From assembly GCA_030648715.1 (NCBI GenBank), contig JAUSGZ010000017.1, positions 5,108 to 69,107 on the forward strand: a DNA stretch of 64,000 nucleotides, read 5' to 3'. Of the stretch, positions 18,578 to 36,909 are shown piece after piece. The notes under the pieces were generated by a model, which saw only the letters and a list, made by a program, of their open reading frames with translations, was not told where the DNA came from and ran no database searches. The translations under genes and the position numbers were made by a program. The DNA comes from a bacterium. Its GTDB lineage: Bacteria > Patescibacteriota > Patescibacteriia > Buchananbacterales > GWA2-38-13. Position 1 is the first letter of the stretch, and every line of letters begins with the position of its first letter.

Positions 18578-19657
18578 CTATCCGTACCCGCGCGTCATCA
18601 TTTTCAGGTGTTCGGGGTCAACCGCCTCCGCCAATGCCTGCGGCTGCGCCACGATCCCGGCCTTGACCAGCGCCGCCAGCGACTGGTCCAGGCTCACCAT
18701 CCCCTCCTGTTGCGACGTCTGCAGCACCGATTGCAGCTGCGGGAACCGACCCTCGCGCAACAACGAATGGGTGGCTGATGTCAGGGTCAGGATCTCCATC
18801 GCCGCGACCCGGCCGCCGTCCATGCGCGGCAACAAACGCTGGCAGATGACCGCACCCAGGCTTTCCGCGAGTTGCTCTTGTGCCTGCCCGCGGACGTCCT
18901 GGGGGAACGTGGAAACGAGCCGTTCAATGGCCTGCACGGCGGTCACCGCGTTCATCGTCACATACACCAGCCGGCCGAACGCCGCCAGCTCCACGGCCGC
19001 CCGCAGCACGCCCGGCTCATCCGTTTCCCCCACCAACACCACGGTTACGTCCTCCTGCCCGCATTCCTCGAGCGCCTGACGGAACGTCGGCACGTCGCGC
19101 CCGACCTCGCGCTGGACCACGATGCTCTTGGCGTTCGTGATCAGGTACTCGATCGGCTGTTCGACGGTGAGGATGTTCTCGGACCTCCGCTGGTTGATCT
19201 GCTCCACCATCGCCGCCGCAGTCGTCGAGCGACCGGAATTGTACGGCCCGCAGGCCACGATCAGCCCGCGCTTGCGGTCCACTAGCTGCCCGATGAATGC
19301 CGGCAACCCCAGCTGATCAAGGTTGGGCACGGTCGTGGAGATCAGACGCCAGGTGAACGCCAGCCCACCCTTCTGATAGAACGCGGTTATCCGCACCCGC
19401 AGCTTCCCCTCATAGAGATAGATGAACCGGACGGAACGGTGCTGCTCCAGCGTTTCCCGCTGCATGGGATCAAGCAGTTCGTCGCGGAGCGCCTCCAAAA
19501 AATCCTTGGTCAGCACCGACGCATCGGTCACTTCGATCAACCCCGTATCCAGCCGCAGCACCGGCAGACTGCCGGCCAGCAGGTGGATATCGGAAGCCTG
19601 GCGCTTGGCGGCGGTAGCCAGGATCTTCCCGACCTCAAGATGGACTGCGGTATTCAT
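18578..19657 (-). CDS. pilT: PilT-family twitching-motility ATPase homolog with degenerate catalytic motifs
   Basis: PilT-like length and N-terminus (DIHLLAGSLPVLRLDTGLI), but Walker A reads GPYNSGRSTT (canonical GPTGSGKSTT) and the His box reads TMNAVTA (canonical TLHTNSA). The Walker B/Asp-box region VVLVGETDE is retained. Confidence 0.8.
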   Translation of the reverse strand: MNTAVHLEVGKILATAAKRQASDIHLLAGSLPVLRLDTGLIEVTDASVLTKDFLEALRDELLDPMQRETLEQHRSVRFIYLYEGKLRVRITAFYQKGGLAFTWRLISTTVPNLDQLGLPAFIGQLVDRKRGLIVACGPYNSGRSTTAAAMVEQINQRRSENILTVEQPIEYLITNAKSIVVQREVGRDVPTFRQALEECGQEDVTVVLVGETDEPGVLRAAVELAAFGRLVYVTMNAVTAVQAIERLVSTFPQDVRGQAQEQLAESLGAVICQRLLPRMDGGRVAAMEILTLTSATHSLLREGRFPQLQSVLQTSQQEGMVSLDQSLAALVKAGIVAQPQALAEAVDPEHLKMMTRGYG

Positions 19658-20037
19658 TGTGGTACAAGCGCCTTAATTTTCTTGACGACCTCCGATGGCA
19701 TGAAGTGCGCCTTGATCAGGTAGTCGGCCGCGCCCAGGTCGAGCCCGCGCTTGACCTCGTCCTTCTGGCTCAAGTTCGTCAGGAGAATGACCGGGATATC
19801 CTTGGTGGCCGCGCCCTCCTTGAGTCCCTTGAGCACCTCGAAGCCGTCGAGTTTCGGCAGAATGATATCCAGCAGCACCAGCGCCGGTTGCTTGTCCTGG
19901 GCGAGTTTTAGCCCTTTCTTCCCGTCGGCCGCGGACAGCACCTCGAACCCCTCCAAGTTCAGCTTCGTCGCATAGAGCTCGGCGAGGAATTCATCGTCTT
20001 CGACCAGGAGGATCACTTTCTTCGCGGATGTGGACAT
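19654..20037 (-). CDS. Single-domain response regulator (CheY-like receiver)
   Basis: KKVILLVEDDEFLAELY...LVLLDIILPKLDGFEVLK...KDIPVILLTNLSQKD...GAADYLIK. The phospho-acceptor Asp and conserved Lys are present. ATGA overlap with the pilT start. Confidence 0.85.
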   Translation of the reverse strand: MSTSAKKVILLVEDDEFLAELYATKLNLEGFEVLSAADGKKGLKLAQDKQPALVLLDIILPKLDGFEVLKGLKEGAATKDIPVILLTNLSQKDEVKRGLDLGAADYLIKAHFMPSEVVKKIKALVPQ

Positions 20038-21801: not shown

Positions 21802-22140
21802 TCATTGCGTCGTGGGGGTCGTGGTCCCAATGTAGGGCAGCGGTTCGAACGGATTGGTACGGCCGGTCGGCCCGGCCTCGACGGGCAACGGCACCACCTG
21901 TCGCAACTCGGTGAACTGCCGGCTGGTAAAGACCGGCGGTTCCGCATTGAATGCCGGCGGCGGCGGGTACTGCACTTGGGCGCTATCGGCAAACTCTTGC
22001 TGCCATTGGGTCGGGACCACGGCGGTATCGGTGTTCACCACGTTGGTATACAACAGCCAGCCGATCGTCACGATCGTCACTACCAGCACAAGGGTAAGGC
22101 TGATGAGTTTCCCGGGGCTTGTTCGGCGGGGGGCGAGCAT
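21802..22140 (-). CDS. Small single-pass membrane protein of the pilus operon (unknown function, Pro-rich periplasmic tail)
   Basis: MLAPRRTSPGKLISLTLVLVVTIVTIGWLLY, then a Pro-rich segment. It is tightly packed between pilO and pilB and has no prepilin motif. Confidence 0.4.
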   Translation of the reverse strand: MLAPRRTSPGKLISLTLVLVVTIVTIGWLLYTNVVNTDTAVVPTQWQQEFADSAQVQYPPPPAFNAEPPVFTSRQFTELRQVVPLPVEAGPTGRTNPFEPLPYIGTTTPTTQ

Positions 22141-22148
22141 AGTTGGTG

Positions 22149-22766
22149 CTAACGCGGCCAATAGTACGCCTGCATCGAAATGGAGAATACCGTATCGTCG
22201 CTGGCGGTAAAATTGATACTGATCACGTCGATCAGCCGGAGGTTGGATTCAAGGTTCGTCAGCAGCTGCTTGATCCTGCCGTAGTTGCCGCGGGAAACGC
22301 TCAAATCGATACGTACGGACCGCAGATCGGACAATGGCCGCGCTTCCGGCGGCACAGCTGCCTCGCCCGCGCCGCCACTGCTCGCAGCGTACTCGGTGAA
22401 TTGGACGCCATTCACCAGCAACCCGCTCTGCCGCGCGATCTCGGCGACCTGCACCAGCAGTCCGGGCAGGTCCGGCTCGGCGGGCAGCAACGACTTGAAT
22501 CGCTCGATCTGCGACAAATTGAAACGGCTTTTCCGCTCCTGCAGGGTGTGCAAGGCTTTCAGATGACCGTCCAAATAATCGGCCTGCGTCCTGGTCTGGA
22601 GCAGATTATAACGACGATGCGTGCGAATTTCCTCCCACCCTCCTTTGATGAACCACAGATACCCGCACACCAAGACGATCACCACGCTCAAAATAATGAG
22701 CTCAAGGTAAAAGCGGGAAAATACCTTGAACAGCTGGACGCGGATTTTCGGCCACGAAATGCTCAT
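22149..22766 (-). CDS. pilO: Type IV pilus assembly protein PilO
   Basis: N-terminal TM (LELIILSVVIVLVCGYLWFI), a coiled-coil segment and a C-terminal PilO-like domain (LPGLLVQVAEIARQSGLLV...ISMQAYYW). ATGA coupling with pilN. Confidence 0.7.
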   Translation of the reverse strand: MSISWPKIRVQLFKVFSRFYLELIILSVVIVLVCGYLWFIKGGWEEIRTHRRYNLLQTRTQADYLDGHLKALHTLQERKSRFNLSQIERFKSLLPAEPDLPGLLVQVAEIARQSGLLVNGVQFTEYAASSGGAGEAAVPPEARPLSDLRSVRIDLSVSRGNYGRIKQLLTNLESNLRLIDVISINFTASDDTVFSISMQAYYWPR

Positions 22767-24556
22767 GGGGCAAACTCCAAGGGCTCAAAGAATACTTCGG
22801 GGCGAAGTATCAACCCGACGGAAAAGTCCACCTGCAGGATCTGCTTGGTCACTGCGTCGGTGATGGCCGTCGCGCTGGAAATATCCGCCCGCTGGATGAC
22901 ATCAGCGGCCTGACGGAACGCGACGATCTGCCGCGCCACGCTGCGGTAGTCGCGGCCGTGCGCCGAGAGTGCCAGCGAACCGTCCGCGCCTGAAGCGAAT
23001 GTGGTGTAGTACACTTCGTCGATGGTGGTGCGCTCCAGCGCGGCAAGCGCCTTGGTCCAGTGGCGGTGCCGCTGCAGCAGATCTTCCAGCAATTTCACAT
23101 CGCGCTGGATCGCGGAGGCTTCGTCGACGAGACCGCGGTACTGGTCGATCTGTTCCACCAGGATCTTAATGCGCTGTTCTTCCCGCTCGATCTCATTGCC
23201 GATGAGATAATCGTACCAGCTGATGAGTTGGCTCATGGTCAGGACCACGAACACGCTGACGCCGATCGCCGACAGGTAGAGCAAGAACTTCCGCGATAAG
23301 TTCAATTCGGGGTGTCGGGCGTACTCTTCCGGGATCAGGTTGATCGCCAAAGTTTTTGTCGGACGCTCCACTGTTTTGCCAGGCTTGAGGGGAAGTTTGG
23401 GTGGTACCGGTTGCGGCGTGATCTTTGGAACAGGTACCGGCTGAAGTTTGGGAGCGGCCATCGCGGTTTTTGCCGGCGCTGGCGGCGGGACAGTCGTTGG
23501 CGGCAACATCGTCAGCCGAGGCGGGACCGGGGGAGCAGCCGGCGGCATCGGCTTTGGCGGCGGGGGTGGCACGGGTTTTACGGGCGGCAACGGCGCGAGC
23601 TTGGGCAGCGGCGGCAGTGACAATTTCACCGGTTTTGGCTTGCGGCGGAACAGCGACTTCAGCCATGCCCAAAACGTTCGCCGCGGCTTTTTTTGCAACG
23701 GCTGCTTTCCCGGCACGGACAACGGCCGCGGTGAAACGATCTTGACGGCGGGGACGGTCGGCTTGGGGGGCGGAGGCGGCGGAAGGAGCGGCTTGAGCTG
23801 TGGCAGCGTCGGCTTTACCGGCTTGGGAGGACGGGCAAACAACTGGAGCAGGCGCTGCCACAACGACTTTCTCGGCGGACGCGGCATCCGCGGCAACGCG
23901 GGACGGATAACGACCGGCGGTAGCACGGGAACTTTAACCTCCACGCGCGGCAGCAAAGGCGGCGGCAACGGCTGCGGCCTGACCGGCGGTACCGCGGGTG
24001 CCACCACGGGCCGGGTTAACGGCAAGGGCGGCCGCGTGAAAAACGATCTCAACCAGCCCCAAAAACCGCGGCGCGGTTTTTTGAACACCCCCACGGCCAC
24101 CCCGCGGCTCACGGATTTGCGCTGAGCGGCTTCCACCTCGCGCCTCACCGCCTCCGCCAGTTTTGCGACCTCGCGATCGTTCAGATGGTACGCACTCGGG
24201 CGCACGGACGGCGCGGCGGGCGAAACTCGCGGTGGCGCTGCCGGCCTGGCGGGCAGCGGCGGCAAGGTGGTAATGGCGGGTTTTGCCGCACCCCCACGCG
24301 GCACCACCACACGTTCCAGTCTTGGTAACGGCGTTGCGGGTAATGGCGGCAATAGTGGCTCGTTCGGGGGCAACGGCCCGGGCCGAGGGACGACCGGCCG
24401 GCCCATGCCGGCGCCCCCGTGCTGCAGCTTTGATCCTCCTGGACGGTCGGGGTTGGTCAGACGCATCTCCACCACCTTGGGCGTTTTGCTCAAACGCTTG
24501 CGCTCGGCCTCTTCCTGGCCGCGCAGTTCGTCAGGTAATAGGTTGATCTCAACCAT
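22763..24556 (-). CDS. pilN: PilN-like protein with ~410-aa proline-rich cytoplasmic N-terminal extension
   Basis: The C-terminal ~180 aa are a canonical PilN (INLIPEEY...TM helix LLYLSAIGVSVFVVLTM...coiled coil...periplasmic domain). The N-terminus begins with a second MVEINLLPDEL motif and is followed by ~400 aa of P/K/V-rich low complexity. Confidence 0.7.
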   Translation of the reverse strand: MVEINLLPDELRGQEEAERKRLSKTPKVVEMRLTNPDRPGGSKLQHGGAGMGRPVVPRPGPLPPNEPLLPPLPATPLPRLERVVVPRGGAAKPAITTLPPLPARPAAPPRVSPAAPSVRPSAYHLNDREVAKLAEAVRREVEAAQRKSVSRGVAVGVFKKPRRGFWGWLRSFFTRPPLPLTRPVVAPAVPPVRPQPLPPPLLPRVEVKVPVLPPVVIRPALPRMPRPPRKSLWQRLLQLFARPPKPVKPTLPQLKPLLPPPPPPKPTVPAVKIVSPRPLSVPGKQPLQKKPRRTFWAWLKSLFRRKPKPVKLSLPPLPKLAPLPPVKPVPPPPPKPMPPAAPPVPPRLTMLPPTTVPPPAPAKTAMAAPKLQPVPVPKITPQPVPPKLPLKPGKTVERPTKTLAINLIPEEYARHPELNLSRKFLLYLSAIGVSVFVVLTMSQLISWYDYLIGNEIEREEQRIKILVEQIDQYRGLVDEASAIQRDVKLLEDLLQRHRHWTKALAALERTTIDEVYYTTFASGADGSLALSAHGRDYRSVARQIVAFRQAADVIQRADISSATAITDAVTKQILQVDFSVGLILRPEVFFEPLEFAP

Positions 24557-24561
24557 GCTGC

Positions 24562-25704
24562 TTAGGAAATCTCTTTCATTCCCAGACCGATAGCGACGGA
24601 AAACCGCGGACCGATCTCATCCAGTGCCGGCTTCAGTTCCTCGGGACAGATGACGCGCGCCCACGGATCGCCCAAAAACACGCGGAGTTGCAGCAGATTC
24701 CCCAAGTATTGCGGAAGGTTCGCGAGCAGCGACGACCCGCCGGTGAGGATCACGCGCTCGATCGGCGGCCGGCCCTGGCTGCGGTAGAGGTTCAGGCTGT
24801 AGCGGATCTCATCGACCACCGGCGCCAGCGCCTGGACGATGGTCGTGGGGATGCTGCCCGCCGCGGTCCCCTGCTGCATGCCGATGTCGTATTTGAGTTG
24901 CTCGGCGCGGTCGAGCGAGACGTTGAGCGCCGTGGCGATTCCCCGGGTGATGGTCAGCCCGCCGACGTTGATGCTGCGGTTCAAGTACGGCACCCCGTTC
25001 TGGGCGATCATGATATTGGTCACGGTGAAATCCATATCCACCAGCATGACCGTCGCCGGGTCTGAACCGATCAAGCTGCGCACCAGCGAGAATGACTCGG
25101 TATCCAGCGCCAGCAGCGTCAACCCGGCCTCGCGGAACAGCGTCAAGTAGCGCCGCACGAGCGCTTTCGGCGCGGCCGTCAGCAGCACTCGGGTATTGCC
25201 CGCCTGCTTGCGATGTACCATCTTGCCGAAGAACCGCATGCCGTTGAACGACAGCTTCTCGGGGTCATTGGGGGTGTGTCCGCTGGCCTTGCCATCCGCC
25301 ACGGCGACCGGCGCATCGGTCGGCAGAATATCCCAATGCAGGTTCATTTCATCGATCGGCAGCGGAATGACCTTCTTGGCCTCCCAGCGCACGGCCGCGG
25401 CCAGCTCCTTGGCGGACAGTTCCGGCAACGTGATGACCGAAGAGAACACCGAAAATGCCGGCAGCGCGGAGATGGCCACGCGACTTCCCACTTTAGCCTT
25501 GCGCACCGTTTCACGGATCAAGCCAGCCGTCATCCGCAGGTCCTGTTCGCTGTCGTCCTTGGATTGGTAGTCCAATGGATGGTCAAAATAGCCGTACGTC
25601 AAGAGCCGCGGCCGGCCGCGGTCATTCTTCAGCTCAACGATTTTCACGCTGTGACTGTCGACGTCCACTCCCAGATAGCTGGTAGCAGCGGAAAAAAGAG
25701 CCAT
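24562..25704 (-). CDS. pilM: Type IV pilus assembly protein PilM (actin-like ATPase fold)
   Basis: SYLGVDVDSHSVKIVELK at the N-terminus and the PilM_2/FtsA-like fold. It is the first gene of the pilMNO-...-pilB-pilT-pilC operon. Confidence 0.85.
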   Translation of the reverse strand: MALFSAATSYLGVDVDSHSVKIVELKNDRGRPRLLTYGYFDHPLDYQSKDDSEQDLRMTAGLIRETVRKAKVGSRVAISALPAFSVFSSVITLPELSAKELAAAVRWEAKKVIPLPIDEMNLHWDILPTDAPVAVADGKASGHTPNDPEKLSFNGMRFFGKMVHRKQAGNTRVLLTAAPKALVRRYLTLFREAGLTLLALDTESFSLVRSLIGSDPATVMLVDMDFTVTNIMIAQNGVPYLNRSINVGGLTITRGIATALNVSLDRAEQLKYDIGMQQGTAAGSIPTTIVQALAPVVDEIRYSLNLYRSQGRPPIERVILTGGSSLLANLPQYLGNLLQLRVFLGDPWARVICPEELKPALDEIGPRFSVAIGLGMKEIS

Positions 25705-26135: not shown

Positions 26136-27608
26136 TCAGCGGGAAGAGGGCGGGTAGCGGGCACACCCGAGCGCATCGTCGGTCGGATCGACCCCAATGC
26201 CAGGGTATGGAAGGGGCAGCTTCAACGGACTGCCGAGGAAAAGGTGCCCCAACGTCGCGACGGCGTCGGAAATATCGACATCACTGTCGTCGTTCACGTC
26301 AGCCGCGTCCAGGCAGGACAGGTCCGGGCCGCCAAGGAAGAGGTACGTCAGGGTGTAGACGGGGTCCGAAATGTCGCGCTCGCCATCGACGTTGCTGTCG
26401 CCGCGCATGAACGTGACGAGCAGCGGCACGGTCCTGATGACCAGGATGTCGTAGTTGGGAGTCGGTGACTCCTGGACAACCCCGTACCCTGTGATGAGGT
26501 AGCTGCCATCCGGGGCAACGCCAAGGTATCTAGGCACATCGCGGCCAGCGGTGCCGTAGTGGGCCTCCCACTGGAGGTTGCCTGCGGCATCGGTCTTGAC
26601 GAGGTAAACGTCAACATTGCCGGCAGTGGTGCCGTCCGTGGTGCCGGCGAGTATGAACCCGCCGTCGCTATCCTGCGCCAAGCGCAACCCGTCTTCGTGA
26701 AACTCGGGAAGCCCGAACTGCTGGTACCATGCAAGCTCGCCGGCAACATCCACCTTCAGCAGAAAGGCGTCGAAGGGCCTGCTGATGTTGGCGTACGCGG
26801 CGCCGCAAATAACGACCCCGTCGTCCACGGCGACCATCGAACGGCCGGAAAGGTGCACGGCAGCGCCGTACGAACGCTGGCCGACGACGTTGCCGCCAGA
26901 ATCGGTAGTGATGAGGACCACCTCAACCTTGCCATCGGTACTGGCACCAGAAAGCAGGAGGTACCCTCCACCGTCCAGCTCCAAAACGGCACTGGCGCTG
27001 GTGATACTGTCATCACCGAGCAACTGCAACCACTGCTGGTTGCCTTCAGCATCCACCTTTAGTAAGAGGATACGATTGATGGCGCCGTTCTCGACCGGAA
27101 CCTGGCTAGCATCGCCGACTGCCACATAGCCGCCGTCGCTGGTGGCCCGTACATCATAGAGACCATCATAGCCATCAGTTCCGTAGGTCTGCTGCCACTG
27201 CAGCACCCCGATGTCGCTCACCTTCATCAGAACGACATCGGGAACCTCCAGCACTGGAGGGTTCTGGAACACTCCAGCCATAACGAACCCATCGCTGGTT
27301 TGGTACGCGACCTGCGGTACCTCGTACCCCTCGCTGCCGAAGGCAGCTGCGGTGTTCATCCCCCCGCCTGGGTCGAGCGACAGGAGACAACTGAGGTTAT
27401 CTCCTACGCCGTACTCACGCGACACCGCGATGACGCTCAATGAACCGCCAGTACCGGACACCGCGCCGATCCCGACGTCCATCGAGCCGCCGCCGTAGGT
27501 GCGGACCACCGCCTCCGGCGGATTGCCCGCAATTGCGGGAACAACGAACATCGCGATGCAGAGCATCACCCCCACTGCGCCCAGACCGAACTGAACCCGT
27601 GTAGCCAT
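26136..27608 (-). CDS. Secreted repeat (beta-propeller-like) protein with C-terminal type-I dockerin-like domain
   Basis: Signal peptide MATRVQFGLGAVGVMLCIAMFVVPAIAG. There are ~6 repeats of a DGG[YF]hhhG ~50-aa unit. The C-terminus carries two Ca-binding dockerin loops, DSNVDGERDISD and DVNDDSDVDISD, each followed by an amphipathic helix. Confidence 0.7.
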   Translation of the reverse strand: MATRVQFGLGAVGVMLCIAMFVVPAIAGNPPEAVVRTYGGGSMDVGIGAVSGTGGSLSVIAVSREYGVGDNLSCLLSLDPGGGMNTAAAFGSEGYEVPQVAYQTSDGFVMAGVFQNPPVLEVPDVVLMKVSDIGVLQWQQTYGTDGYDGLYDVRATSDGGYVAVGDASQVPVENGAINRILLLKVDAEGNQQWLQLLGDDSITSASAVLELDGGGYLLLSGASTDGKVEVVLITTDSGGNVVGQRSYGAAVHLSGRSMVAVDDGVVICGAAYANISRPFDAFLLKVDVAGELAWYQQFGLPEFHEDGLRLAQDSDGGFILAGTTDGTTAGNVDVYLVKTDAAGNLQWEAHYGTAGRDVPRYLGVAPDGSYLITGYGVVQESPTPNYDILVIRTVPLLVTFMRGDSNVDGERDISDPVYTLTYLFLGGPDLSCLDAADVNDDSDVDISDAVATLGHLFLGSPLKLPLPYPGIGVDPTDDALGCARYPPSSR

Positions 27609-27838
27609 GGAAAGACCTCCTTTCGAGAGTTGTTGCCTGTTTTCCAGGCACGGGCACACCAAATTTTTTGCCGTACCACACAATGGCGCGGCCAAAGTTC
27701 ATAGCAATTGACTGATTTTCAAAGTACCGGACGTAACGTATCAACTGCCATCAATAAATATATATCATACGTCATCATCCACCAACCGAAGTATACTAAA
27801 ATTACAAAATTTTGTCAAGAGTAAGCCAAAATTTCCGC

Positions 27839-30800
27839 CTACTTCCAGACCGGCAGCGATTGAACGGCCTGTTCCAGCCCCAAGGGAGTATTTGCGAGGA
27901 TTCGGCCGTCGTAAATGAAGCGCTCGGCGGGATTCACCAGGTCGGGATAGACGCGTTCCAGCAGGAATTGCCGCGCCACAAATACCCCGCGCGCCGTCAA
28001 TGCCTTCGGTGACGCCGTATCGTCGCCGGTCATGATGCTGCCGCAGGTCAGAGGATCAGCGGCGGCGTTGCAGGCCGTCGCGCGGTTTGCCCAGTCGCCC
28101 AACGCAATGAGTGTGCTGTCCACCTGGGTAACGCTCGGGTCGATCTGCACGCCGCCCAAAACCAGCCACGCGGCAGACGCGATATTCTTCAGGCTGGTGG
28201 GGCCGGGCGCGTCGGTGTACTGAACGCCGTCACCAATATACAAGTTGCCGTTGATGAGGAACAGCGCCGACCCATCCTGACTGCCAAAATTATTGGCAAA
28301 TGAGAGCGCGCTCGAGGTGACGCAATCCCCGAGTGTACTGCCGTCCCAGTAGTAAATGTTGCCGCCCAGCACCGAGGGCAGCGACGACCCACTACCGTCG
28401 CAGGTATTGTACGTTGCCAGGTCGATGACGCGGGCGGCACCATAGCGGTTGCGCAACTTATCCAGCACCCCGCCAACGCTGGAAAAATTTGACCCGTTGA
28501 ACCCCTGCAAGAACCACAGGGTGCCTGCCGGCGTGCTGAAATCGTTGGTATAGCTGGGGAAAGACTTGGTCCAACCGGCATTGCTGTAGAATGGCAGTTT
28601 GCACGCTCCGCTGCCGAAATCGGCCCCGGATGCGCAGGTGGACGACCAGTTGTTGATGCTGCCGCCCGAAGTCAGGAGGAACGTGCTGTTCAGCGTCGGC
28701 GGCGGCGTCAGCGCCTCAAGGTTGTGTCCGGCAAAGACATCGCCGTACTGGGTCTGTGCCCACGGCTTGGGGTCGGAGAAAAGGCAATTGCTGACATTTC
28801 CAAAGTCATCGAGCGCGCAGATGTTGAAGTAGATCGTGCCGGTCAGCTTGGTCCACAACTGCGTCAAACAATTCGCTCCTTGATTACAGGTAATAACGCC
28901 AAGGTTGGCATCAAGTCGCGGACGCACCGTCCAGTCGCAGGCTAATGTATCCTCCTCGTGCGGCAACCCGCTCGCCGCGGCGGAGATATCCTCCCACACG
29001 AACGGGCCATCCGCGGCGTTGCCGTTGGTATCTTGACGGGCGATTATATCGGCGCTGATACTGCCAAACCAAATCTCGTAGTGCGCTTGGTTGTTCGTCC
29101 ACGACTGATACTCGCCCGAGGTCACCTCGCCGGTCGCCCACGGCCAGGTAATATCGTAGCGATTGACCGTATAGGCGCAAGGGAAATCATCCGACGTGCC
29201 CTGTGCCCCAAAGTTTGGGACCGGCAACGCCGGCAACGTCGGCCCTTGCAAGTCCAGCATCATCCGCTGGCGGCGCGTCCATTCTTTCCTGGTTTCTGCG
29301 TCGGCTTGGGTGCACGCCTGCGTGCAGGACGGCTGGCAACTGGCATCGCAGAGGGTGATGTTATTGTACAATCCTGGCCCAGAGAAACAGCCCGGGTCGG
29401 TATCCCACGGACAGCTGCTGTTGCCCTGCTCGAAATTATTCACTTCCAGCCACACTGGCAGACGCCGGTTGGCATACGTCACGCTGCCGGCCGGACAGCC
29501 TTCCCCATAGTTGAAGCAGCTGCTGGCCGCCGCCCAGTAGAACGTCACGTCGGTTAAATAGTTGAGATCAAAACCAGTGTTGGGCGCCGGCCAGGGGCGC
29601 GTTACGACGGGATCCGTCTGGCCGATGCGCGACGTCAGCGGCCAAAACTCATAGCCATTGTCCACCGAAGGATGCGGGGGGGGTGGCGGCTGCGGCAATC
29701 CCGCAGGCGGTTGCATTTTTGGCAGCGGCAGCGGCGGATCGGCTGGCGACAACGGCTGCTGGCTTGTATTGTCGCTAAAGTAGCTCTCGGAACACCAATA
29801 GCTTTCGCCGTCGCAGAACGGCCACCAGCCCGTGCCGGGCGGCGTCGTACTTATGTCTGATGGGTCTTTCCAGGTTGCCTGCTCGGTCGCAAACCACAGG
29901 CCAAGCTTCAGGTCTGACCCCTCGTAGTCGCCCATTTGGACCGTGATCTTCACGTCGCCGCGCGCCAATTCGCGCGTCGCCAGGTCGGAACTCCGCAAGG
30001 GTTTATCCTGGGTCGCGAACCGGTCGGCGTTGCCCGCCGCATCACCATGGAAACGAATGATGGGTGCAACGCACGAAGCCGCGGTATTTGGTATTCCCTC
30101 TTCATAGAAGTAGTTCAAGTCGTCCTTATACGGCGACGCATAGGATGCCGGCCACGTATTGCCGCCGAGGTAGCTGCGATTGCCGCAAAAGTTAATGTCA
30201 CTGGTACAGTCCGGGTCCATTACCGCCGGACAATCGGCGTCGCACACCCCATCATCGGCCGCCAGGCAACAATTTCCGGCCGTATTCGTGCAGCCATTGA
30301 TACAGTCGGGGTCCACTGCGAGGCCGCCGGCATCAATACTGCAATCCGGGTCGCAACGGTTGTCGGTATTGGCCTGGCAGCAACCGTCCGCCGAATTGTT
30401 ACAGAGCGTCGCGCAGTCCGGGTCCGCGGGCAGCCCGTCCGAGTAGGTAAAGCCGCAATTGTAGTCGCAGACGCCGTTCAACCGGCGGTCGCAGGCAGCG
30501 CCCGAATAGGCGATGGTCAGCGCGCCACAATCCGGGTCACGGCCGGCGGGACATCCATAGTCGCACATCCCGTCCAGCCATGGCTGGCAGCTGGCGACGG
30601 CCGGCCACTGCGCAGGAGTCGTACAGTCAGGGTCCACGCCTGCAGCGCAGTCGGTATCGCAAGCGTTATCGACGGCCGGGAAGCAGCAATCCACCGCCAC
30701 GCAATCAGGGTCCACCGGCTGGCCGCCGGTCAGCGGGCCGCAATCAATATCGCACACGCCGTTACTCCGGGCAAAGCCGGTGGCGGGATCGGTATTGCAG

Positions 30801-33800
30801 CCGGCGCCGCCGTCGGTGGAAACCGTATTGCCGGGAACATACGCCGGCCGCCAGGAGCAGAGGCCGGTGCGGCAATCCGGGTCGTTGGAACCGCTCACTC
30901 CCCTCTCCAGACAATCCGGGTCGCAGATACTGTCGCTTTGGCCGTTGCACGTGCCGTCCGGCCCGTCGTCACCGCTCCCGTTGGTGCCGCAGTTGGGGTC
31001 CAAGCCCGCCGGACAGTCGGGATCGCAGAACCCATCGCTGGCAACCGGCCAGCAGCCGTCGTCGCTGCCATTGCCGATGCCGCCGCAATCCGGGTCGACG
31101 ATGCTGGCAGCGAACGACCCATACGTGCAGTCCGCATCGCAATCGTCCGGCTCGTCATTGCTGGCATTGCAGCAGCCGTCGGTCGCATTGCTGCACACGC
31201 GCGGGCCGCAGTCGCGGTCGTAATTTCCGCTAAATGAGCAGTCGTAATCGCAGCCATCGCCCACCGGCGGCGGGTTGGGGCACGAAAAATTCTTGACCGC
31301 ATTCGCCGGCTTCCAGCAGTCCGGGTCAACCGCGCCCGGACAGTCGGCGTCGCAGACCGTATCGATGACGGGCAGGCAGCAATTACCGGCAGCGCTGGTA
31401 CAGACCGGACAATCCGGGTCCACAACCTTCCCCTCCGCATCCAAACCGCAATCCGGGTCGCAGACATCCGGGGTGTCATTCTGGGCCAGGCAGCACCAAT
31501 CATGGCCGTTCTGGCACGCCTGTTCGAACGCCCCGCGGTCGGCTGCCGCCGAGCCGATGGATGACTTTTGGATATTGCCGGTCGTCATCCCGCCCACCTG
31601 CACCTCCCAGAACCGGTTGGCCGGATCGGCTCCGTGGCGGAGGTCGTTGCGGCCGGTCAAGGCGCCGCCGCCCGTCCCGCCGCCGCCCAACGGATCGCTC
31701 GTGCAGTCAACGCACGACAGGTCGAAATTGGCCACGCTCTTCATGCTGATATTGTCGCCTTCCATGGTGCCGCTGCCCGGCGTAATGCGCGCATCAAGGA
31801 TGGTGACCTGGCTGCTGTCAGTAACCTCCACGCCATGGCCGAACGGGTTACGGATCTCCAAGCCATCGAACGTCGTGGTCGCATCGCTGAATCCGGTATT
31901 CCTCCCGACGATGCGGACGCACGGCCCGATGCAATTTTCGAGTTCAAGGTTCCGCGCATTCACCGGACCGGCGTAGTTGAATTCCAGCGGGTCGGCGCCC
32001 GACAATTTGCTCGCCACCCCCTTGAGGTTGGTGAACTGAAAAAAGGTGCTGTTGTTGGCGACTTGGAGGTGGTAGGTGCGCAACGGCGTACAGGTAGCGC
32101 CAATGCCGGCGCAGTCGGCGGCCGCGGTACACCGTTTTCCCCAGTCCAGCGTCGAACCCTGGCAGGTTTTCTCGAATTCCGGGTTGCTCAATGTCTGCAC
32201 CACGCCAGCGTCAACGTACTCACTCGTACCGTAGAAGTAGTAAAGCGGCGGGTGCAGGGCGCAGGTCACCGTCAGCTTCGGACGGTTCGCCGCCGTGCCA
32301 TTCTCCTCCTTATCGAAAGCGAACCCATCATCGTCGGCGGCGCCGTTATCGGGCGCGATCAGCAAACCTTCCGCGAGCCGCAGCCCCGACACCCACTCCT
32401 GCACCAGCTGACGGCCGTAGGCGTTGAGGGTATGGGTGTAGCTTCCCAATACCCCCGTACCGAAGCCCGTACCGCTGGCTAAATTGATGCCGTCCTGGTC
32501 CTGGAACGTGGATTTCGCCCCAGGAATGTTCCACGAGCCGGACGCAAACGGCCTATTCCAAGTCGCCTCGGCATCAATAAAGTAGTTCCGCAGCCCGTAG
32601 ATGGCAAACCGGTCCGCGGAGCTGTTCGTGACGTTGACCGTGAGCTTCACGTCCAGGACGGTGCAGCCGGGGGGCAGCACAAGATCCTGGGTTGAAAAGG
32701 GCACCCACCGGAGAAGTACGCGTGTCTCCTTGCCGGTGCCGTTGTTGTCGATATCACCGTCCACCGCCAAGGTCGCGTCGCCGTTCTTGGGCGTCGTCGG
32801 CTCCTTCTCATTAATGACGGTGTCGGACGTATCGTTGAACGTGGCCGTCGGACCCACGCCATCCTGCAGCTGGTAAGTGACGACGGTCGCGGACCCGCTG
32901 GGGCCGGCCGCATTCGTGCGCGCGACCGTGTGGCTGTAGTACTGGGTCGCGGAAAAATCCTCTGCGCCGTCGACGACGCGCGAGCCCGGGATACGCCCGA
33001 CCCAGAAGTAGGGCTGCTTGAGCGCGGTACCGGTGGAGGTCACGCGGTTGCCGAACCAGGTGATCTGCGTCGAATCGCCGATACGGATGCCCGGCGGGTC
33101 CTCCACATCCAGGCCGCCGAACCGGTCCGGGATCTGAACAACGTTGCCGCGAAAGATCATATTCCGAGCGTAGGAAAGCTGGATGCCCGGCCCATTGTTG
33201 TCTAAAAATTGATTGCCATCCACATCGGTGTAGCCGGACTGGAGGTACTCGTCCTCGGAAAACGCGGCCCCGCCTTGCGCGTTGCCGTTGAAGGAATTGA
33301 ACGCGATCTGCGTGCCGCTGCCGGCATCCTCCGCGCGCAGCCCCCACCCGGTATTGTTATTCACGGCGCTGTAGTTGAGGTACTGGTTGAATGGCCCGTC
33401 CAGCCATATCCCATCGCTCCCCTCGCGGAGCGTGGCGCCGGCGGCGTTCTTGCCATTCTCCACGCTGGCGAGCTTGTAGAACACATTGAGTCCGTATCCG
33501 CGGAGGTGCATGCCACCCGCAAAATTCCGGGTCGTGGTGTTGTTATACTCGTTCGGCTGGAGCCCGATCGGCCAGGTCCGAACATCATAGACGGAATACC
33601 CGTAGCACGGCGACGTGGGCGAGATATAGTTGCAGCTCGAGCCAAAACCCACATTCCACCCGAAAAAATTCCCCCAACCGGATTGCCCGCCCTCCGCGTA
33701 CACGCCGTACCGGCTGACGCTCCCCGAGAACGTATTGCGCCAAAAGAAGTTGTGGGTCGTGTCGGCATCGCGGCCGCTGTACGAACGCGTGAGCGCGACA

Positions 33801-36361
33801 TTGTCGCCCTGGCTGTCGGAGATGGTGTTCTCGTAGAACTGGCCGTACTGCGAGCCGTAGAGGAGGAGGCCGATGGCGTCCGTCGCGCCCCCCGTCCCGG
33901 TATCGTCAATGGTCGTATGATGGGTAATGACCTGGTCCACGTCGTACGCTAGGAGCCCGCCGTTGGTATTGGCCGAGAAAAGCGCGTTCCACACCAGCAG
34001 CCGGTTGGCGACGACCCCGCGCGACTGCGCCCGCACCCCCTCGTTGTTGGTCAGCAGCTGGATGCAGCCGGCAGTCGCACACCCCAGCGTCGTGCTGGAC
34101 GTGTCGAACATCAGCACGCCGTAGCCGTTGCTGGAAAACTGGCTGTTGCTGACCGCAATGTTGTAGCTGTTGACCGCATAAAGCCCGACCTGCGCGCCGC
34201 TGACCGAAACGTTGGTGACCTTTTGGGACGAGGCAACGGCCGTGTCGCATTTCCCATTGTCCAGGCTCATGCCGACGCACGCCAATTTCAGCGGGTCGCC
34301 GTTGGCGAGCGCCATGCCGCCCCCCAACAGACCGCCGAAATTCCGCACTTCGATGTTCTTGGCGCCAACGATGGTCAGGTGGCCAAGGTTGGCGAGGAAC
34401 GGGTCGGTAACGCCGTCAAATACCAGACCGTCAATGGTCGGCCCGAAATAGTAGAGCACCTGTTTGCCGGTGACACCCAGCCAGTTGAACGGCATGGGTG
34501 CGCCGCCGCCGGGCCGATAGGCGGGATTGGCGAAGACGTGACGGTAGTCGTTCAGCCGCAGACCCGCGGGGTAATTGGGGTCAACATCGGAAACGCCGTC
34601 CCCATCCACTCCTTTTTCGCAATACACGCCATCGCCATCCTTATCCGGGAAACAATCCTGGAGGTGGTCGGACAGCACGTTGTAGTACTGGCCGTAGCGG
34701 CCGTCGCGGATGGTCCAGACATTATTCCAGCGCAGGAGAAAATCCTCGGTGTTCTCGAGCTTGATGCCGTTGCCAAACCCCTCCAGCTCGCAGCCGACGA
34801 TAGTGCCGCGCCGGCGCGTTTGGTACGTGTTGTTGCTGGCAAGCCGCGTGGACGTGGCGTGGATGCCGACTGTGCTGGTGGCAAAAAGGTCCAATACCGC
34901 CGGGTTCAGCCGCAGCTTGCCGCCGAAGTCAAACTGTGCCTCCCAGTCGCAGTCCAAAATGAGATTGTCGGCCGCAAAACCGATGGCATCGCGCGTGCCA
35001 TCCCCCGGCGGATACGGCGGATCGAACGTGTAGAGGGTATTAGGCGCCAGACACGTGTTTTCCTGGAGAATTCTCGAAGAAGTCCACGTCCCGCCCGCCA
35101 GGCACGCCTTGCGATAATTCTCGGCGTTGTAGAGATCGGTTCGCGGCAGCCCATAACAATCGGGGTCGACGGATGGAGTGACGCAGTCGTAATCGCATAG
35201 ATTGTTGCTCGCGGTGTTGCAGCTGCCTGGCGTTCCGGTATCCTGCGGTTCGACGCTTGTGAAAATGTTGTCCTTTGTGACATCGTTGCCCGGCGATTGG
35301 AAACTGATGTCGTGACCGACCGACTCCAGACGGATACCCACCCCGCGGCCTGAAAATACGTTGTTGTAAACGTTGATGTAGTCCATCCGCGGGGTCAACG
35401 CGCCGCCGTTGTCCAAATACAGGTCGTTGAGCGTGCAGTCGGTGCTCATCGGCACGGTTTTGGTCGCACAGTCAATGTAGTTGGAGTGGATAGGCAGCCG
35501 GGCGGCGGCCTGGCCCAGCGGCGTACTCAAATAGATACCGGCCTCATTGGTGTAACTGTCGGCCGCCGTCTCGTAGACGGTGACGCGGTTGCCGGAAATT
35601 TCGCTGTCGGGCATGTGCAGGTTGGCAAGGTAGATACCCTGCTGGCCCACCTCCAGGATGTCGTTCTCCAAAATTTTTATGCCGGTCCCGTTACTGGCGC
35701 CGAAACTCCCGCGAATGCCGATCTCGGTCGTTGCCAGCACGCTGCCGGTCCAACGGCTGCGGATGGTATTGTTCTGCAGCGTCCAGTTGACCGTACTCTG
35801 AAAGCTGATGCCCTGGTCGAATCCTTCAATGACGCAATTTTTAATGGTGACGTTCTGTTTGCAGGCATCCTGACCGCCGCTGGCGCAGGGCTGCGAGCAG
35901 GTGTCATACTGCCGGGCCTCCGCAAAGCAGGCGGTACACGACCAGCCCCCGCGGAAGTAATCCCAGCGCGCGTCGATGCCGACGCCGGGAATGTTGCCGA
36001 TGTTATTGCGGTTCGTGTACAAGCGGTGCCCCTGGCAATCAATGGTGATGGGGGTGGCATCGTCGGTCGCGGCGATGCGCAAACCGTAAAAATATTCATC
36101 CGACTGCACGTTGCAGTGGCCCTCGCCGGCGTAGTAATCGGACTCATACCCATCGCACGGCCCCAGGTCGCTCGCCAGGGTAACATCGCCCACCACGTAG
36201 CTCCCGCAGGCGCACTGCCCCTGCCCGCCGCCGCACTCGTCATAGGAATACTGCTGGGCACCGACCGCGCGGGGCAGCAGGAACATCGCGCCGGCAGCAA
36301 CCGCTGCCGCTGCCCACGAGCGTACCCTGAACCCTTGCTGCAAAATACTGAGATGCCGCAT
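27839..36361 (-). CDS. Giant secreted protein (2841 aa): parallel beta-helix repeats, TSP3-like Ca-binding motif, Cys/Asp-rich tandem repeat array, large C-terminal domain; probable surface adhesin/fibre
   Basis: Signal peptide MRHLSILQQGFRVRSWAAAAVAAGAMFLLPRAVGAQQ. Right-handed beta-helix repeat signatures occur throughout (NNTIR...G.Y...N, GVLMFDTSSTTL...). It contains DKDGDGVYCEKGVDGDGVSD and ~13 CDxDC-x(5-10)-DPDC repeats. A GTG at 36427 is an alternative start. Confidence 0.8.
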   Translation of the reverse strand: MRHLSILQQGFRVRSWAAAAVAAGAMFLLPRAVGAQQYSYDECGGGQGQCACGSYVVGDVTLASDLGPCDGYESDYYAGEGHCNVQSDEYFYGLRIAATDDATPITIDCQGHRLYTNRNNIGNIPGVGIDARWDYFRGGWSCTACFAEARQYDTCSQPCASGGQDACKQNVTIKNCVIEGFDQGISFQSTVNWTLQNNTIRSRWTGSVLATTEIGIRGSFGASNGTGIKILENDILEVGQQGIYLANLHMPDSEISGNRVTVYETAADSYTNEAGIYLSTPLGQAAARLPIHSNYIDCATKTVPMSTDCTLNDLYLDNGGALTPRMDYINVYNNVFSGRGVGIRLESVGHDISFQSPGNDVTKDNIFTSVEPQDTGTPGSCNTASNNLCDYDCVTPSVDPDCYGLPRTDLYNAENYRKACLAGGTWTSSRILQENTCLAPNTLYTFDPPYPPGDGTRDAIGFAADNLILDCDWEAQFDFGGKLRLNPAVLDLFATSTVGIHATSTRLASNNTYQTRRRGTIVGCELEGFGNGIKLENTEDFLLRWNNVWTIRDGRYGQYYNVLSDHLQDCFPDKDGDGVYCEKGVDGDGVSDVDPNYPAGLRLNDYRHVFANPAYRPGGGAPMPFNWLGVTGKQVLYYFGPTIDGLVFDGVTDPFLANLGHLTIVGAKNIEVRNFGGLLGGGMALANGDPLKLACVGMSLDNGKCDTAVASSQKVTNVSVSGAQVGLYAVNSYNIAVSNSQFSSNGYGVLMFDTSSTTLGCATAGCIQLLTNNEGVRAQSRGVVANRLLVWNALFSANTNGGLLAYDVDQVITHHTTIDDTGTGGATDAIGLLLYGSQYGQFYENTISDSQGDNVALTRSYSGRDADTTHNFFWRNTFSGSVSRYGVYAEGGQSGWGNFFGWNVGFGSSCNYISPTSPCYGYSVYDVRTWPIGLQPNEYNNTTTRNFAGGMHLRGYGLNVFYKLASVENGKNAAGATLREGSDGIWLDGPFNQYLNYSAVNNNTGWGLRAEDAGSGTQIAFNSFNGNAQGGAAFSEDEYLQSGYTDVDGNQFLDNNGPGIQLSYARNMIFRGNVVQIPDRFGGLDVEDPPGIRIGDSTQITWFGNRVTSTGTALKQPYFWVGRIPGSRVVDGAEDFSATQYYSHTVARTNAAGPSGSATVVTYQLQDGVGPTATFNDTSDTVINEKEPTTPKNGDATLAVDGDIDNNGTGKETRVLLRWVPFSTQDLVLPPGCTVLDVKLTVNVTNSSADRFAIYGLRNYFIDAEATWNRPFASGSWNIPGAKSTFQDQDGINLASGTGFGTGVLGSYTHTLNAYGRQLVQEWVSGLRLAEGLLIAPDNGAADDDGFAFDKEENGTAANRPKLTVTCALHPPLYYFYGTSEYVDAGVVQTLSNPEFEKTCQGSTLDWGKRCTAAADCAGIGATCTPLRTYHLQVANNSTFFQFTNLKGVASKLSGADPLEFNYAGPVNARNLELENCIGPCVRIVGRNTGFSDATTTFDGLEIRNPFGHGVEVTDSSQVTILDARITPGSGTMEGDNISMKSVANFDLSCVDCTSDPLGGGGTGGGALTGRNDLRHGADPANRFWEVQVGGMTTGNIQKSSIGSAAADRGAFEQACQNGHDWCCLAQNDTPDVCDPDCGLDAEGKVVDPDCPVCTSAAGNCCLPVIDTVCDADCPGAVDPDCWKPANAVKNFSCPNPPPVGDGCDYDCSFSGNYDRDCGPRVCSNATDGCCNASNDEPDDCDADCTYGSFAASIVDPDCGGIGNGSDDGCWPVASDGFCDPDCPAGLDPNCGTNGSGDDGPDGTCNGQSDSICDPDCLERGVSGSNDPDCRTGLCSWRPAYVPGNTVSTDGGAGCNTDPATGFARSNGVCDIDCGPLTGGQPVDPDCVAVDCCFPAVDNACDTDCAAGVDPDCTTPAQWPAVASCQPWLDGMCDYGCPAGRDPDCGALTIAYSGAACDRRLNGVCDYNCGFTYSDGLPADPDCATLCNNSADGCCQANTDNRCDPDCSIDAGGLAVDPDCINGCTNTAGNCCLAADDGVCDADCPAVMDPDCTSDINFCGNRSYLGGNTWPASYASPYKDDLNYFYEEGIPNTAASCVAPIIRFHGDAAGNADRFATQDKPLRSSDLATRELARGDVKITVQMGDYEGSDLKLGLWFATEQATWKDPSDISTTPPGTGWWPFCDGESYWCSESYFSDNTSQQPLSPADPPLPLPKMQPPAGLPQPPPPPHPSVDNGYEFWPLTSRIGQTDPVVTRPWPAPNTGFDLNYLTDVTFYWAAASSCFNYGEGCPAGSVTYANRRLPVWLEVNNFEQGNSSCPWDTDPGCFSGPGLYNNITLCDASCQPSCTQACTQADAETRKEWTRRQRMMLDLQGPTLPALPVPNFGAQGTSDDFPCAYTVNRYDITWPWATGEVTSGEYQSWTNNQAHYEIWFGSISADIIARQDTNGNAADGPFVWEDISAAASGLPHEEDTLACDWTVRPRLDANLGVITCNQGANCLTQLWTKLTGTIYFNICALDDFGNVSNCLFSDPKPWAQTQYGDVFAGHNLEALTPPPTLNSTFLLTSGGSINNWSSTCASGADFGSGACKLPFYSNAGWTKSFPSYTNDFSTPAGTLWFLQGFNGSNFSSVGGVLDKLRNRYGAARVIDLATYNTCDGSGSSLPSVLGGNIYYWDGSTLGDCVTSSALSFANNFGSQDGSALFLINGNLYIGDGVQYTDAPGPTSLKNIASAAWLVLGGVQIDPSVTQVDSTLIALGDWANRATACNAAADPLTCGSIMTGDDTASPKALTARGVFVARQFLLERVYPDLVNPAERFIYDGRILANTPLGLEQAVQSLPVWK
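30180..31516 (-). repeat. Coding tandem repeat array within the giant protein: ~13 copies of a 25-40-aa Cys/Asp-rich module (CC-x6-8-C-D-x-D-C-x5-10-[VL]DPDC)
   Basis: Examples are CCLAQNDTPDVCDPDCGLDAEGKVVDPDC, CCLPVIDTVCDADCPGAVDPDC, CCQANTDNRCDPDCSIDAGGLAVDPDC and CCLAADDGVCDADCPAVMDPDC. It is mirrored on the plus strand as 'QSGS'-repeat shadow ORFs. Confidence 0.6.
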
Positions 36362-36405
36362 CACTGGAGGGAAATGCAGAACAGCGTTATACTGAAACCG
36401 TCCGT

Positions 36406-36909
36406 ATGGGAAAAAATCGCGCTCCACTTGCCGGCCTCGTCATTGCCCTTGGGCTCGTCGTACTTGGGTTGTTCCTGGGCGCGCGCTGGCTGACCACATC
36501 GCGACGTGCACCCGTCGCACCGGTAACCGTCTGGGGCCGGTATCTTGAGCGTACCCCCGACTCGCTGACAGTGACCGTTGACCAGTTGCCGCCGGCGGCA
36601 ACCCAACAGGCAAATCTCCTGCCGATGGGCACGGAACGGCGTACAGTCTTTCCGCTCACGCCGCAAACGACCATGGTGGCGGAATATTTCATGGGCGACG
36701 GTGAACTGGCAACGCTCATCCTGTCGGAACCGCTGAATTTCAATAACCTCTTGCCGGGTACCGTACTCCAGATCGAAGCCGTTCCCCTCGGCCGGGGAAA
36801 ATGGCGCACGCTGGCAGTCCGGCGCCGCCAGTCCATTGCCCGCCCGGATCCTGCTGCGGAAGATACTGCTGCTACTACGAACATCCCGCCACCTATCAGC
36901 CCCCCATAA
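36406..36909 (+). CDS. Hypothetical membrane-anchored protein (divergent from giant-protein gene)
   Basis: N-terminal TM LAGLVIALGLVVLGLFLGARWL, 167 aa, no recognisable family. Confidence 0.4.
   Translation: MGKNRAPLAGLVIALGLVVLGLFLGARWLTTSRRAPVAPVTVWGRYLERTPDSLTVTVDQLPPAATQQANLLPMGTERRTVFPLTPQTTMVAEYFMGDGELATLILSEPLNFNNLLPGTVLQIEAVPLGRGKWRTLAVRRRQSIARPDPAAEDTAATTNIPPPISPP

Follow-up and report, generated by a model that had tools for sequence, protein, structure and literature searches.

A PilN with two INLLP-type motifs and a long, predicted cytoplasmic tail encoded in a type IV pilus locus of Patescibacteria

The window analysed here is a stretch of 64,000 nucleotides from a bacterium of the Patescibacteriota (GTDB order Buchananbacterales; GenBank assembly GCA_030648715.1, contig JAUSGZ010000017.1, positions 5,108 to 69,107). 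It carries a type IV pilus locus whose pilN gene, encoding a protein with a long N-terminal extension and two INLLP-type motifs, is the subject of this study. The genes of the locus are arranged in the order pilM-pilN-pilO-small transmembrane (TM) protein-pilB-response regulator-pilT-pilC-pilin. The pilC product matches T2SSF, the pilin bears an N-methylation motif, and the same order recurs in related loci, where now and then a member is absent or falls below detection. The pilN open reading frame (ORF) occupies positions 22763..24556 of the minus strand, starts with ATG and encodes 597 amino acids followed by a stop codon; the ratio of nonsynonymous to synonymous substitution rates (dN/dS) over the whole gene was 0.14 against an orthologue from a metagenome-assembled genome (MAG) of the Parcubacteria group (L004). 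An identical protein is held at NCBI under the name 'hypothetical protein', also from a MAG. Upstream lies pilM, the gene of the presumed partner (24562..25704, minus strand, 380 aa; PF11104, 2e-33), with its stop codon 5 nt before the pilN start, and its product is homologous to the solved PilM chains 3jc8_M, 2ych_A and 5eox_A. Downstream, a pilO-like gene (22149..22766, minus strand, 205 aa) overlaps the pilN stop by 4 nt; its match to PF04350 is weak (E 0.005, below cut-off), and a homologue was found at the matching position in most related loci.

The features of the window PilN, all on the minus strand, were mapped from the N-terminus onwards, partly with an AlphaFold2 (AF2) model built from a 12-sequence alignment and scored by the predicted local distance difference test (pLDDT). 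Residues 1-12 (MVEINLLPDELR, 24521..24556) form the first INLLP-type motif, a putative distal PilM-docking peptide recognised by homologue conservation and the family logo. INLLP begins at residue 4, and N5, L6, L7, P8, E10, L11 and R12 were invariant in seven homologues. The motif opens a conserved module of 35 residues (24452..24556) with a charged helix predicted at residues 9-24. Residues 13-401 (23354..24520) constitute the tail, which composition, pLDDT, dN/dS and charge characterise as Pro-rich, polybasic, mostly disordered and probably cytoplasmic; pLDDT was below 50 over most of residues 25-409, the helices 9-24, 127-152, 165-173, 232-240 and 295-303 excepted. The longest of these tail helices is charged (NDREVAKLAEAVRREVEAAQRKS, aa 126-152, 24101..24181) and was modelled at residues 127-152 with a block pLDDT of up to 88; E129, V137 and V141 are invariant in close homologues, and residues 121-147 are identical in the L004 orthologue.

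Three basic amphipathic Trp/Phe helices follow, with hydrophobic moments given on the Fauchere-Pliska scale. The first (KKPRRGFWGWLRSFFTRPP, aa 159-177, 24026..24082; moment 0.59, charge +3) was modelled as a helix at 165-173 and is conserved in L004. The second (RPPRKSLWQRLLQLFARPP, also written PRKSLWQRLLQLFARPP, aa 226-244, 23825..23881; moment 0.62, charge +3) was modelled at 232-240 with a pLDDT of about 75. The third (KKPRRTFWAWLKSLFRRKP, aa 289-307, 23636..23692; moment 0.58, charge +4) was modelled at 295-303 with a pLDDT of about 71; it is 95% identical in L004, and R292, W296 and R305 are invariant in seven homologues. The tail ends at a second, internal motif (TLAINLIPEEYA, aa 402-413, 23318..23353), a putative proximal PilM-docking peptide supported by the family logo; the motif reads TLAINLIPEEY over residues 402-412, with INLIP beginning at residue 405, and takes the canonical membrane-proximal place. 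Residues 401-450 around it had a dN/dS of 0.05 against L004. A single TM helix with its N-terminus inside (aa ~423-445, 23222..23290; Kyte-Doolittle maximum 2.16, charge asymmetry) is the sole strongly hydrophobic segment. It leads into the extracytoplasmic core (22787..23221), in which AF2 and Foldseek place a long helix to residue 510 and a beta-beta-alpha-beta-beta unit at residues 511-590. Composition predicts 0.0009 occurrences of INL[LI]P per protein; the window PilN has two. An earlier, sequence-only reading of this DNA had the protein starting with MVEINLLPDEL and reaching its TM helix only after about 415 residues and a second INLIPEEY motif, and the map agrees on both counts.

The window protein is a divergent but genuine PilN. 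Neither its whole sequence nor residues 400-597 alone matched PF05137 or the NCBIfam PilN entry, even at E ≤ 10, so that its identity comes from homologues, predicted fold and gene context. PF05137 was matched by 6 of 11 close homologues (best E 8e-6) and by 12 of 20 diverse family cores (best E 9e-7), and one homologue (P0003) is named 'PilN domain-containing protein' at NCBI. In the AF2 model residues 420-590 were confident (block pLDDT 76-95), the TM-plus-long helix spanning 416-510 ahead of the alpha/beta unit. Foldseek against the PDB returned the periplasmic domain of EpsL (2w7v, E 5.6e-4) as best structural match, followed by PulL (5hl8, 8a9w) and PilO (3jc8_O, 2rjz, 5uvr); PilN, PilO, GspL and GspM are of one fold class. 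Other searches added little. With hhalign the family core and the single HofN sequence of E. coli aligned with a probability of 1%, over a positionally sensible stretch LLxxHxWxT; a sequence search of solved structures with the family profile and with the two motif segments alone gave nothing meaningful, and a protein search with the alignment of 20 cores returned short, truncated gene calls only. What marks a PilN is present: an INLLP-type peptide shortly before a single N-in TM helix, an extracytoplasmic long helix with a PilN/PilO/GspL-type alpha/beta core, and a place within a pilM-pilN-pilO unit of a type IV pilus locus. The departure is the tail, of about 420 residues and two motifs where about 30 residues with one N-terminal peptide are usual. 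The domain had been called canonical PilN; the family holds through homologues, fold and context, while 'canonical' is too strong for a protein without a Pfam or NCBIfam match of its own.

Whether such a long reading frame is genuine was addressed by comparison. The L004 orthologue is 80% identical over its full length (tblastn), has the same residue in 83% of the aligned codons and keeps all three Trp motifs. In the codon alignment of the two genes, dN/dS was 0.20 at a synonymous divergence (dS) of 0.70 over tail residues 36-400, with all indels in whole codons, and 0.06 over the PilN core. Related loci were retrieved with a 7-sequence alignment using N-terminal patterns, so that the N-terminal motif in these loci is not independent evidence but the unbroken frame is. 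In all 16 species-level genomes with pilM and the PilN core on one locus, one unbroken ORF of 393-607 aa, beginning M-x-[DEN]-[IV]-NLLP and located 8-337 nt after pilM, runs into the PilN core. These genomes span a GC content of 26-67%, and the ORF is intact in those with 26-46% GC in the gene, where long chance ORFs are not expected. The substitution pattern bears the signature of a tail that is translated and under purifying selection, and together with the in-frame indels and the 16 intact ORFs it shows that the extension is real. Artefact, frameshift and fusion of two ORFs, about which the sequence-only reading had expressed concern, are rejected as explanations.

Database entries named PilN with only 173-229 aa at first resembled relatives of classical length. 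Two of them were checked at the DNA level and proved to be internal GTG calls or contig-edge truncations of long ORFs. In the first (L001:5107-6612) an intact ORF of 501 aa starting MVDINLLPDELR is present, with the gene annotated only at 6001-6612; in the second (L003:11-1063) the ORF reaches the contig edge and the gene is annotated at 464-1063. The public gene calls P0010 and P0012 start at internal GTG codons. An internal start was considered as a conserved feature and rejected, the GTG chosen in P0010 and P0012 being a Thr codon in the window, where no well-spaced Shine-Dalgarno sequence was seen before V396 or L403. An assembly-repeat artefact was rejected as well: the region has no long DNA repeats pointing to a collapsed or expanded assembly, only short, diverged Pro-codon repeats of 65-80% identity.

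To follow the layout through the clade, 1.84 billion cluster representatives (a single one for each cluster at 50% identity) were searched exhaustively with a profile, which yielded 2263 representatives at E ≤ 1e-3 and 295 at E ≤ 1e-30. The motif census covered the best 149 of the 2263 matches, and in 140 of these a TM helix and core were recognisable. Both motifs, an N-terminal one of [IVL]-N-L-L type and an internal [IV]-N-L-[IVL]-P just before the TM helix, were found in 106 of the 140, separated by a median of 205 residues (interquartile 172-287, range 46-573). A single motif next to the TM helix was seen once among the 140, in an entry resembling a GTG-truncated gene call. The 'internal-only' cases numbered 20, and most of them begin within tail-like sequence and look like truncated gene calls. 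With the long ORFs of the 16 genomes, this comparison of PilN lengths in related lineages, which the sequence-only reading had named as a check, makes the long tail with two motifs the rule for a large clade and not a one-off. Named sources were the Parcubacteria group, the Patescibacteria group, Candidatus Buchananbacteria and Candidatus Veblenbacteria. Ten representatives were looked up, of which two were named, both as 'hypothetical protein' from Parcubacteria group bacteria. As a separate observation, seven third-party MAGs labelled 'uncultured Gammaproteobacteria bacterium' (L006, L009, L011, L016, L017, L019 and L022) carry a Patescibacteria-type pilus operon and a long PilN; these labels are probably placeholders or errors.

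The two motifs resemble each other beyond their shared core. The N-terminal logo (n = 107; I 92%, N 93%, L 94%, L 96%, P 76%) has the consensus M-x-[DE]-I-N-L-L-P-[DE]-E-L-R, and the internal logo (n = 124; V 78% or I 20%, N 96%, L 98%, P 99%) the consensus L-[DE]-V-N-L-I-P-E-E-L; the TM helix follows the internal motif after a median of 15 residues. Both share the clade-specific flanks [DE]-[IV]-N-L-[LI]-P-[DE]-E-[LF], acidic at positions -1, +1 and +2. The one classical PilN sequence compared for its flanks, E. coli HofN, reads P-I-N-F-L-P-W-R (MNPPINFLPWRQQRR), with Pro at -1, W-R after the Pro and hydrophobic residues directly after. The shared flanks are most simply explained by one partner for both motifs. 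Since the extension is real and both motifs are conserved, a second, or tethered, PilM-docking site is a reasonable reading of the N-terminal motif.

The tail is predicted to be cytoplasmic. It lies N-terminal to the sole TM helix, no signal peptide was found on the window PilN, the net charge is +52 over residues 1-420 and -7 over residues 446-597, and the motifs are of the type that docks PilM; from these four signs we place it on the inner side of the membrane. Its composition is that of a basic, proline-rich linker: residues 31-414 contain 27% Pro, 36 Arg, 30 Lys and 12 acidic residues (D2 E10). Low complexity rich in P, V and K had been described for this spacer, which is right as to proline, although Arg outnumbers Lys. 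Among 116 tails of the family, Lys accounts for 17%, Pro for 13% and Glu for 10%, with a median charge of +0.09 per residue.

The Trp and Phe residues are not scattered over this linker. In residues 31-400, 11 of 12 fall within the 59 motif residues of the three helices (hypergeometric P = 8e-9). The first and third motifs, of the form KKPRR...FW.WL..LF, are identical in 13 of 19 residues, as expected from the two near-identical amphipathic motifs noticed earlier; a third, weaker copy at 226-244, which aligns with units 1 and 3, had been missed. All three Trp motifs lie in alignable units of about 65 residues, each combining a basic stretch with a Trp helix, the sequence RPPKPVK and a run rich in Pro, and by this alignment the units are a diverged tandem triplication. 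The helices have moments of 0.58-0.62 and charges of +3 to +4, compared with a moment of 0.61 for the C-terminal helix of E. coli FtsA (GSWIKRLNSWLRKEF), which we take to be the FtsA membrane-targeting sequence. They are short and amphipathic with a hydrophobic/aromatic face and basic flanks, as membrane-targeting sequences are, and differ in position, being internal to the tail of an integral membrane protein instead of terminal on a soluble one; this likeness, too, had escaped the sequence-only reading. Such basic aromatic amphipathic helices occurred 0.62 times per tail in the 116 family tails against 0.04 in shuffled tails, an enrichment of about 14-fold, and up to four were found in one tail, as in the 778-aa P0006. 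A weak NCBIfam match was also noted at aa 293-309, on the third Trp motif, to 'RSP_7527 family protein' (48 residues; E 0.004, 17 bits against a cut-off of 26); it probably reflects shared amphipathic-helix character only.

For classical PilN, the first eight residues are known to bind a channel in PilM (PMC6325625). The PDB entry 5eou contains a chain named as a PilM,PilN fusion, with 372 residues against 357 for PilM alone. In that work residues 1-12 of PilN were reportedly placed at the C-terminus of PilM; if so, the peptide needs no free N-terminus and an internal copy could bind.

On these grounds a mechanism can be proposed, which as a whole we infer and hold tentatively, with slightly more doubt than trust: the tail would be a disordered tether adsorbed to the membrane, giving every PilN two sites at which PilM can dock. 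In this Patescibacteria (Parcubacteria/Buchananbacteria-like) pilus operon the cytoplasmic tail of PilN, usually of about 30 residues, would have been expanded to about 400. Its membrane-proximal motif would dock PilM as in classical PilN, and the N-terminal motif, carried at the far end of the long flexible tether, would add another docking site. A single PilN might in this way bind a pair of PilM protomers, or bridge to the PilM of an adjacent PilMNO unit. The amphipathic helices, together with the polybasic stretches, would rest against the inner membrane face in the manner of the membrane-targeting helices of FtsA and MinD, and by this adsorption both the tether and the second PilM would stay membrane-associated, not free in the cytoplasm. 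As a result avidity would be higher, and the PilM platform beneath the pilus machine would be larger or cross-linked. A more elaborate form, in which the amphipathic helices and polybasic stretches of such two-PilM tails make up a disordered network bound to the membrane, which links PilMNO units to one another or gathers them into clusters and replaces the PilP-PilQ stabilisation of classical machines in these cells, which have no outer membrane, is speculative and on balance unlikely.

Several observations weigh against the tether with two docking sites. The AF2 confidence of the Trp helices is moderate, with pLDDT 57-75 from an alignment of 12 sequences. The strict amphipathic-helix filter was passed by only 47 of the 116 family tails; those that failed it often carry weaker motifs such as SLLSRLFAKK and KKFSFAGWFSIFNRRG, which resemble the MinD membrane-targeting sequence or the basic-aromatic cluster of MARCKS. 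No locus yielded more than one pilM, which immediately precedes the long pilN in every locus extending that far; this count is uninformative on a 2:1 complex. Finally, the Pro of the N-terminal motif is conserved in 76% (variants INLLK, IDFLK and INLTH) against 99% in the internal motif, so that the two sites may not be equivalent.

The last point leads to the alternative that fared best, namely that one motif alone docks PilM and the other, a duplicate that has diverged, serves another purpose, such as binding an actin-like protein like FtsA, as FtsN does, or competing intramolecularly for the PilM groove as a regulatory switch. Sub-clades have Lys or His at the place of the Pro, whole ones reading INLLK or IDFLK, and the single pilM gene of each locus fits a single docking site. 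The FtsN and PilN peptides moreover bind the same IA-IC cleft of FtsA and PilM (PMC7613929). Yet no second actin-like gene was found in the operon, and the clade-specific flanks common to both motifs are most easily understood with one partner; we regard a division of labour between the motifs as possible but somewhat unlikely.

A further alternative sees the tail mainly as a polycationic disordered scaffold, serving nucleic-acid binding in DNA uptake or the clustering and condensation of machines through basic/aromatic stickers, with the extra INLLP secondary. It draws on the net charge of +52, on the Lys-, Pro- and Glu-rich composition and positive median charge of the family tails, on the confinement of aromatic residues to short, regularly spaced motifs, and on the joint enrichment of type IV pili and competence genes in bacteria of the candidate phyla radiation (CPR) (PMC6744442). 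No nucleic-acid-binding domain or motif was found, however, the aromatic motifs are clean amphipathic helices with basic flanks, a classic lipid-binding signature, and the strong conservation of the N-terminal motif is left unexplained. Such a scaffold is improbable as the main role of the tail.

The proposal of the sequence-only reading that the extension is a ruler or polyproline spacer bridging a thick envelope has 27% Pro and many PPxP runs in its favour, superficially like the TonB spacer, but it fails with the cytoplasmic placement of the tail: the extension precedes the sole TM helix without a signal peptide, is bracketed by peptides of the type that docks cytoplasmic PilM and carries +52 against -7 beyond the helix, where the folded PilN core would pair with PilO. 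An extracytoplasmic ruler is thus very hard to uphold. Practically negligible, finally, is the view that the long ORF is an artefact (a frameshift, a two-gene fusion or a chance GC-rich frame), or that only a product of an internal start near residue 396-403 is made, for which the internal GTG calls in P0010 and P0012 and ORFs of 220 aa in other frames of the GC-rich region could be cited: the full ORF is intact in the contigs of both homologues, their GTG is not conserved, the N-terminal 35 residues are highly conserved, and the constraint on the tail, the genomes of 26-46% GC and the lack of long repeats set out above speak for the whole frame.

Around the long pilN the locus contains further features. 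PilM has, at about aa 125-170, a Pro/Gly-rich gap between the two stretches that match Pfam and the solved PilM chains, and this gap holds a basic-aromatic patch, LSFNGMRFFGKMVHRKQ, with a moment of only 0.4-0.5; it is not clearly a membrane helix. The small gene after pilO (21802-22161, minus strand) encodes 119 aa, hydrophobic in one segment near the N-terminus and rich in Pro in the C-terminal part, and matched no Pfam or NCBIfam family. Homologues occur in the closer related loci, and elsewhere unrelated-looking genes of 94-113 aa fill the slot. The protein may add a fourth component to the platform in these pilus systems. Between pilB and pilT lies a gene for a stand-alone response-regulator receiver domain (19654-20037, minus strand, 127 aa), placed likewise in most related loci that extend far enough; its position suggests a built-in phospho-control of pilus extension and retraction. 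In one related locus a gene whose product has a 23S rRNA intervening-sequence protein domain (PF05635; L001:11313-11666) stands between pilT and pilC, and it is absent from the window operon.

Giant surface proteins are typical of Patescibacteria, and two giant ORFs flank the pilus locus. One (27839-36427, minus strand, 2862 aa) has right-handed beta-helix/NosD repeats and many Cys-rich 'CDxDC' repeats; the other (56007-63998, minus strand) has at least 2663 aa and runs off the window end. A gene of 5586 aa lies upstream of pilM in another locus (L025). An ORF of 519 aa (26136-27695, minus strand) without a Pfam match ends in two Asp-rich repeats (DSNVDGERDISD, DVNDDSDVDISD) resembling calcium-binding repeats of the dockerin or EF-hand type.

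Docking of PilN to PilM links the cytoplasmic motor side to the membrane platform of type IV pili. In every studied system, to our knowledge, a single short peptide serves this docking, on a tail of about 30 residues. From a PilN that throughout a clade has two putative docking peptides, a tether of 150-570 residues and repeated putative membrane helices, a cytoplasmic ring of different stoichiometry or geometry is predicted, and if this is true, the cytoplasmic architecture of Patescibacteria pilus machines departs from the classical one. Few machines are enriched across Patescibacteria; type IV pili, which mediate host attachment, belong to these few, and papers on CPR bacteria count PilN as a pilus component (PMC6744442; PMC12206443). 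In the searchable literature, which omits most subscription-journal papers, no account of a PilN with a long tail or two motifs was found. The window PilN and the Parcubacteria cluster of P0148 are annotated as 'hypothetical protein', and mis-called PilN genes leave about 1 kb after pilM unannotated. With these labels and the truncation at internal GTG codons, surveys of pilus machinery in Patescibacteria mis-size or miss PilN.

Compared with known systems, the window protein is closest to classical PilN (PF05137; Thermus thermophilus, Pseudomonas aeruginosa, E. coli HofN), with which it shares an INLLP-type peptide about 15 residues before an N-in TM helix, a long helix and small alpha/beta core after it, and a gene between pilM and pilO. 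The cytoplasmic tail of classical PilN has about 30 residues (PMC7613929), whereas here about 420 residues hold an extra N-terminal motif, three amphipathic helices and a conserved charged helix; in HofN, of 179 aa, the motif is at residues 5-9 and hydrophobic residues come about 10 residues later. GspL/EpsL/PulL of type II secretion is likewise bitopic: a single TM helix joins its large cytoplasmic part to a periplasmic domain like that of PilN. The cytoplasmic part, however, is folded and actin-like, similar to PilM, whereas the tail described here is disordered, has no domain match and leaves PilM to a separate gene.

The docking of FtsN to FtsA is alike in that a short N-terminal cytoplasmic peptide of a bitopic protein enters the actin-like IA-IC cleft, and PilM is itself a relative of FtsA, which binds the membrane via a C-terminal amphipathic helix (PMC7613929); the machine is a different one, with a single peptide on a short tail. 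The membrane-targeting helices of FtsA, MinD and MreB are short, basic, rich in Trp/Phe/Leu and amphipathic, as are those of the PilN family. Theirs are single and terminal on a cytoplasmic protein, whereas in the PilN family they are internal, repeated two to four times and on the membrane partner; the Trp spacing differs, so that the resemblance is one of class and not of homology, and membrane binding is predicted only. A long, Pro-rich, low-complexity linker on a membrane anchor is also found in TonB and ZipA. The TonB spacer lies in the periplasm and consists of Pro-Glu/Pro-Lys repeats, whereas the tail of the window PilN is predicted to be cytoplasmic, is interrupted by helices and ends in a docking peptide.

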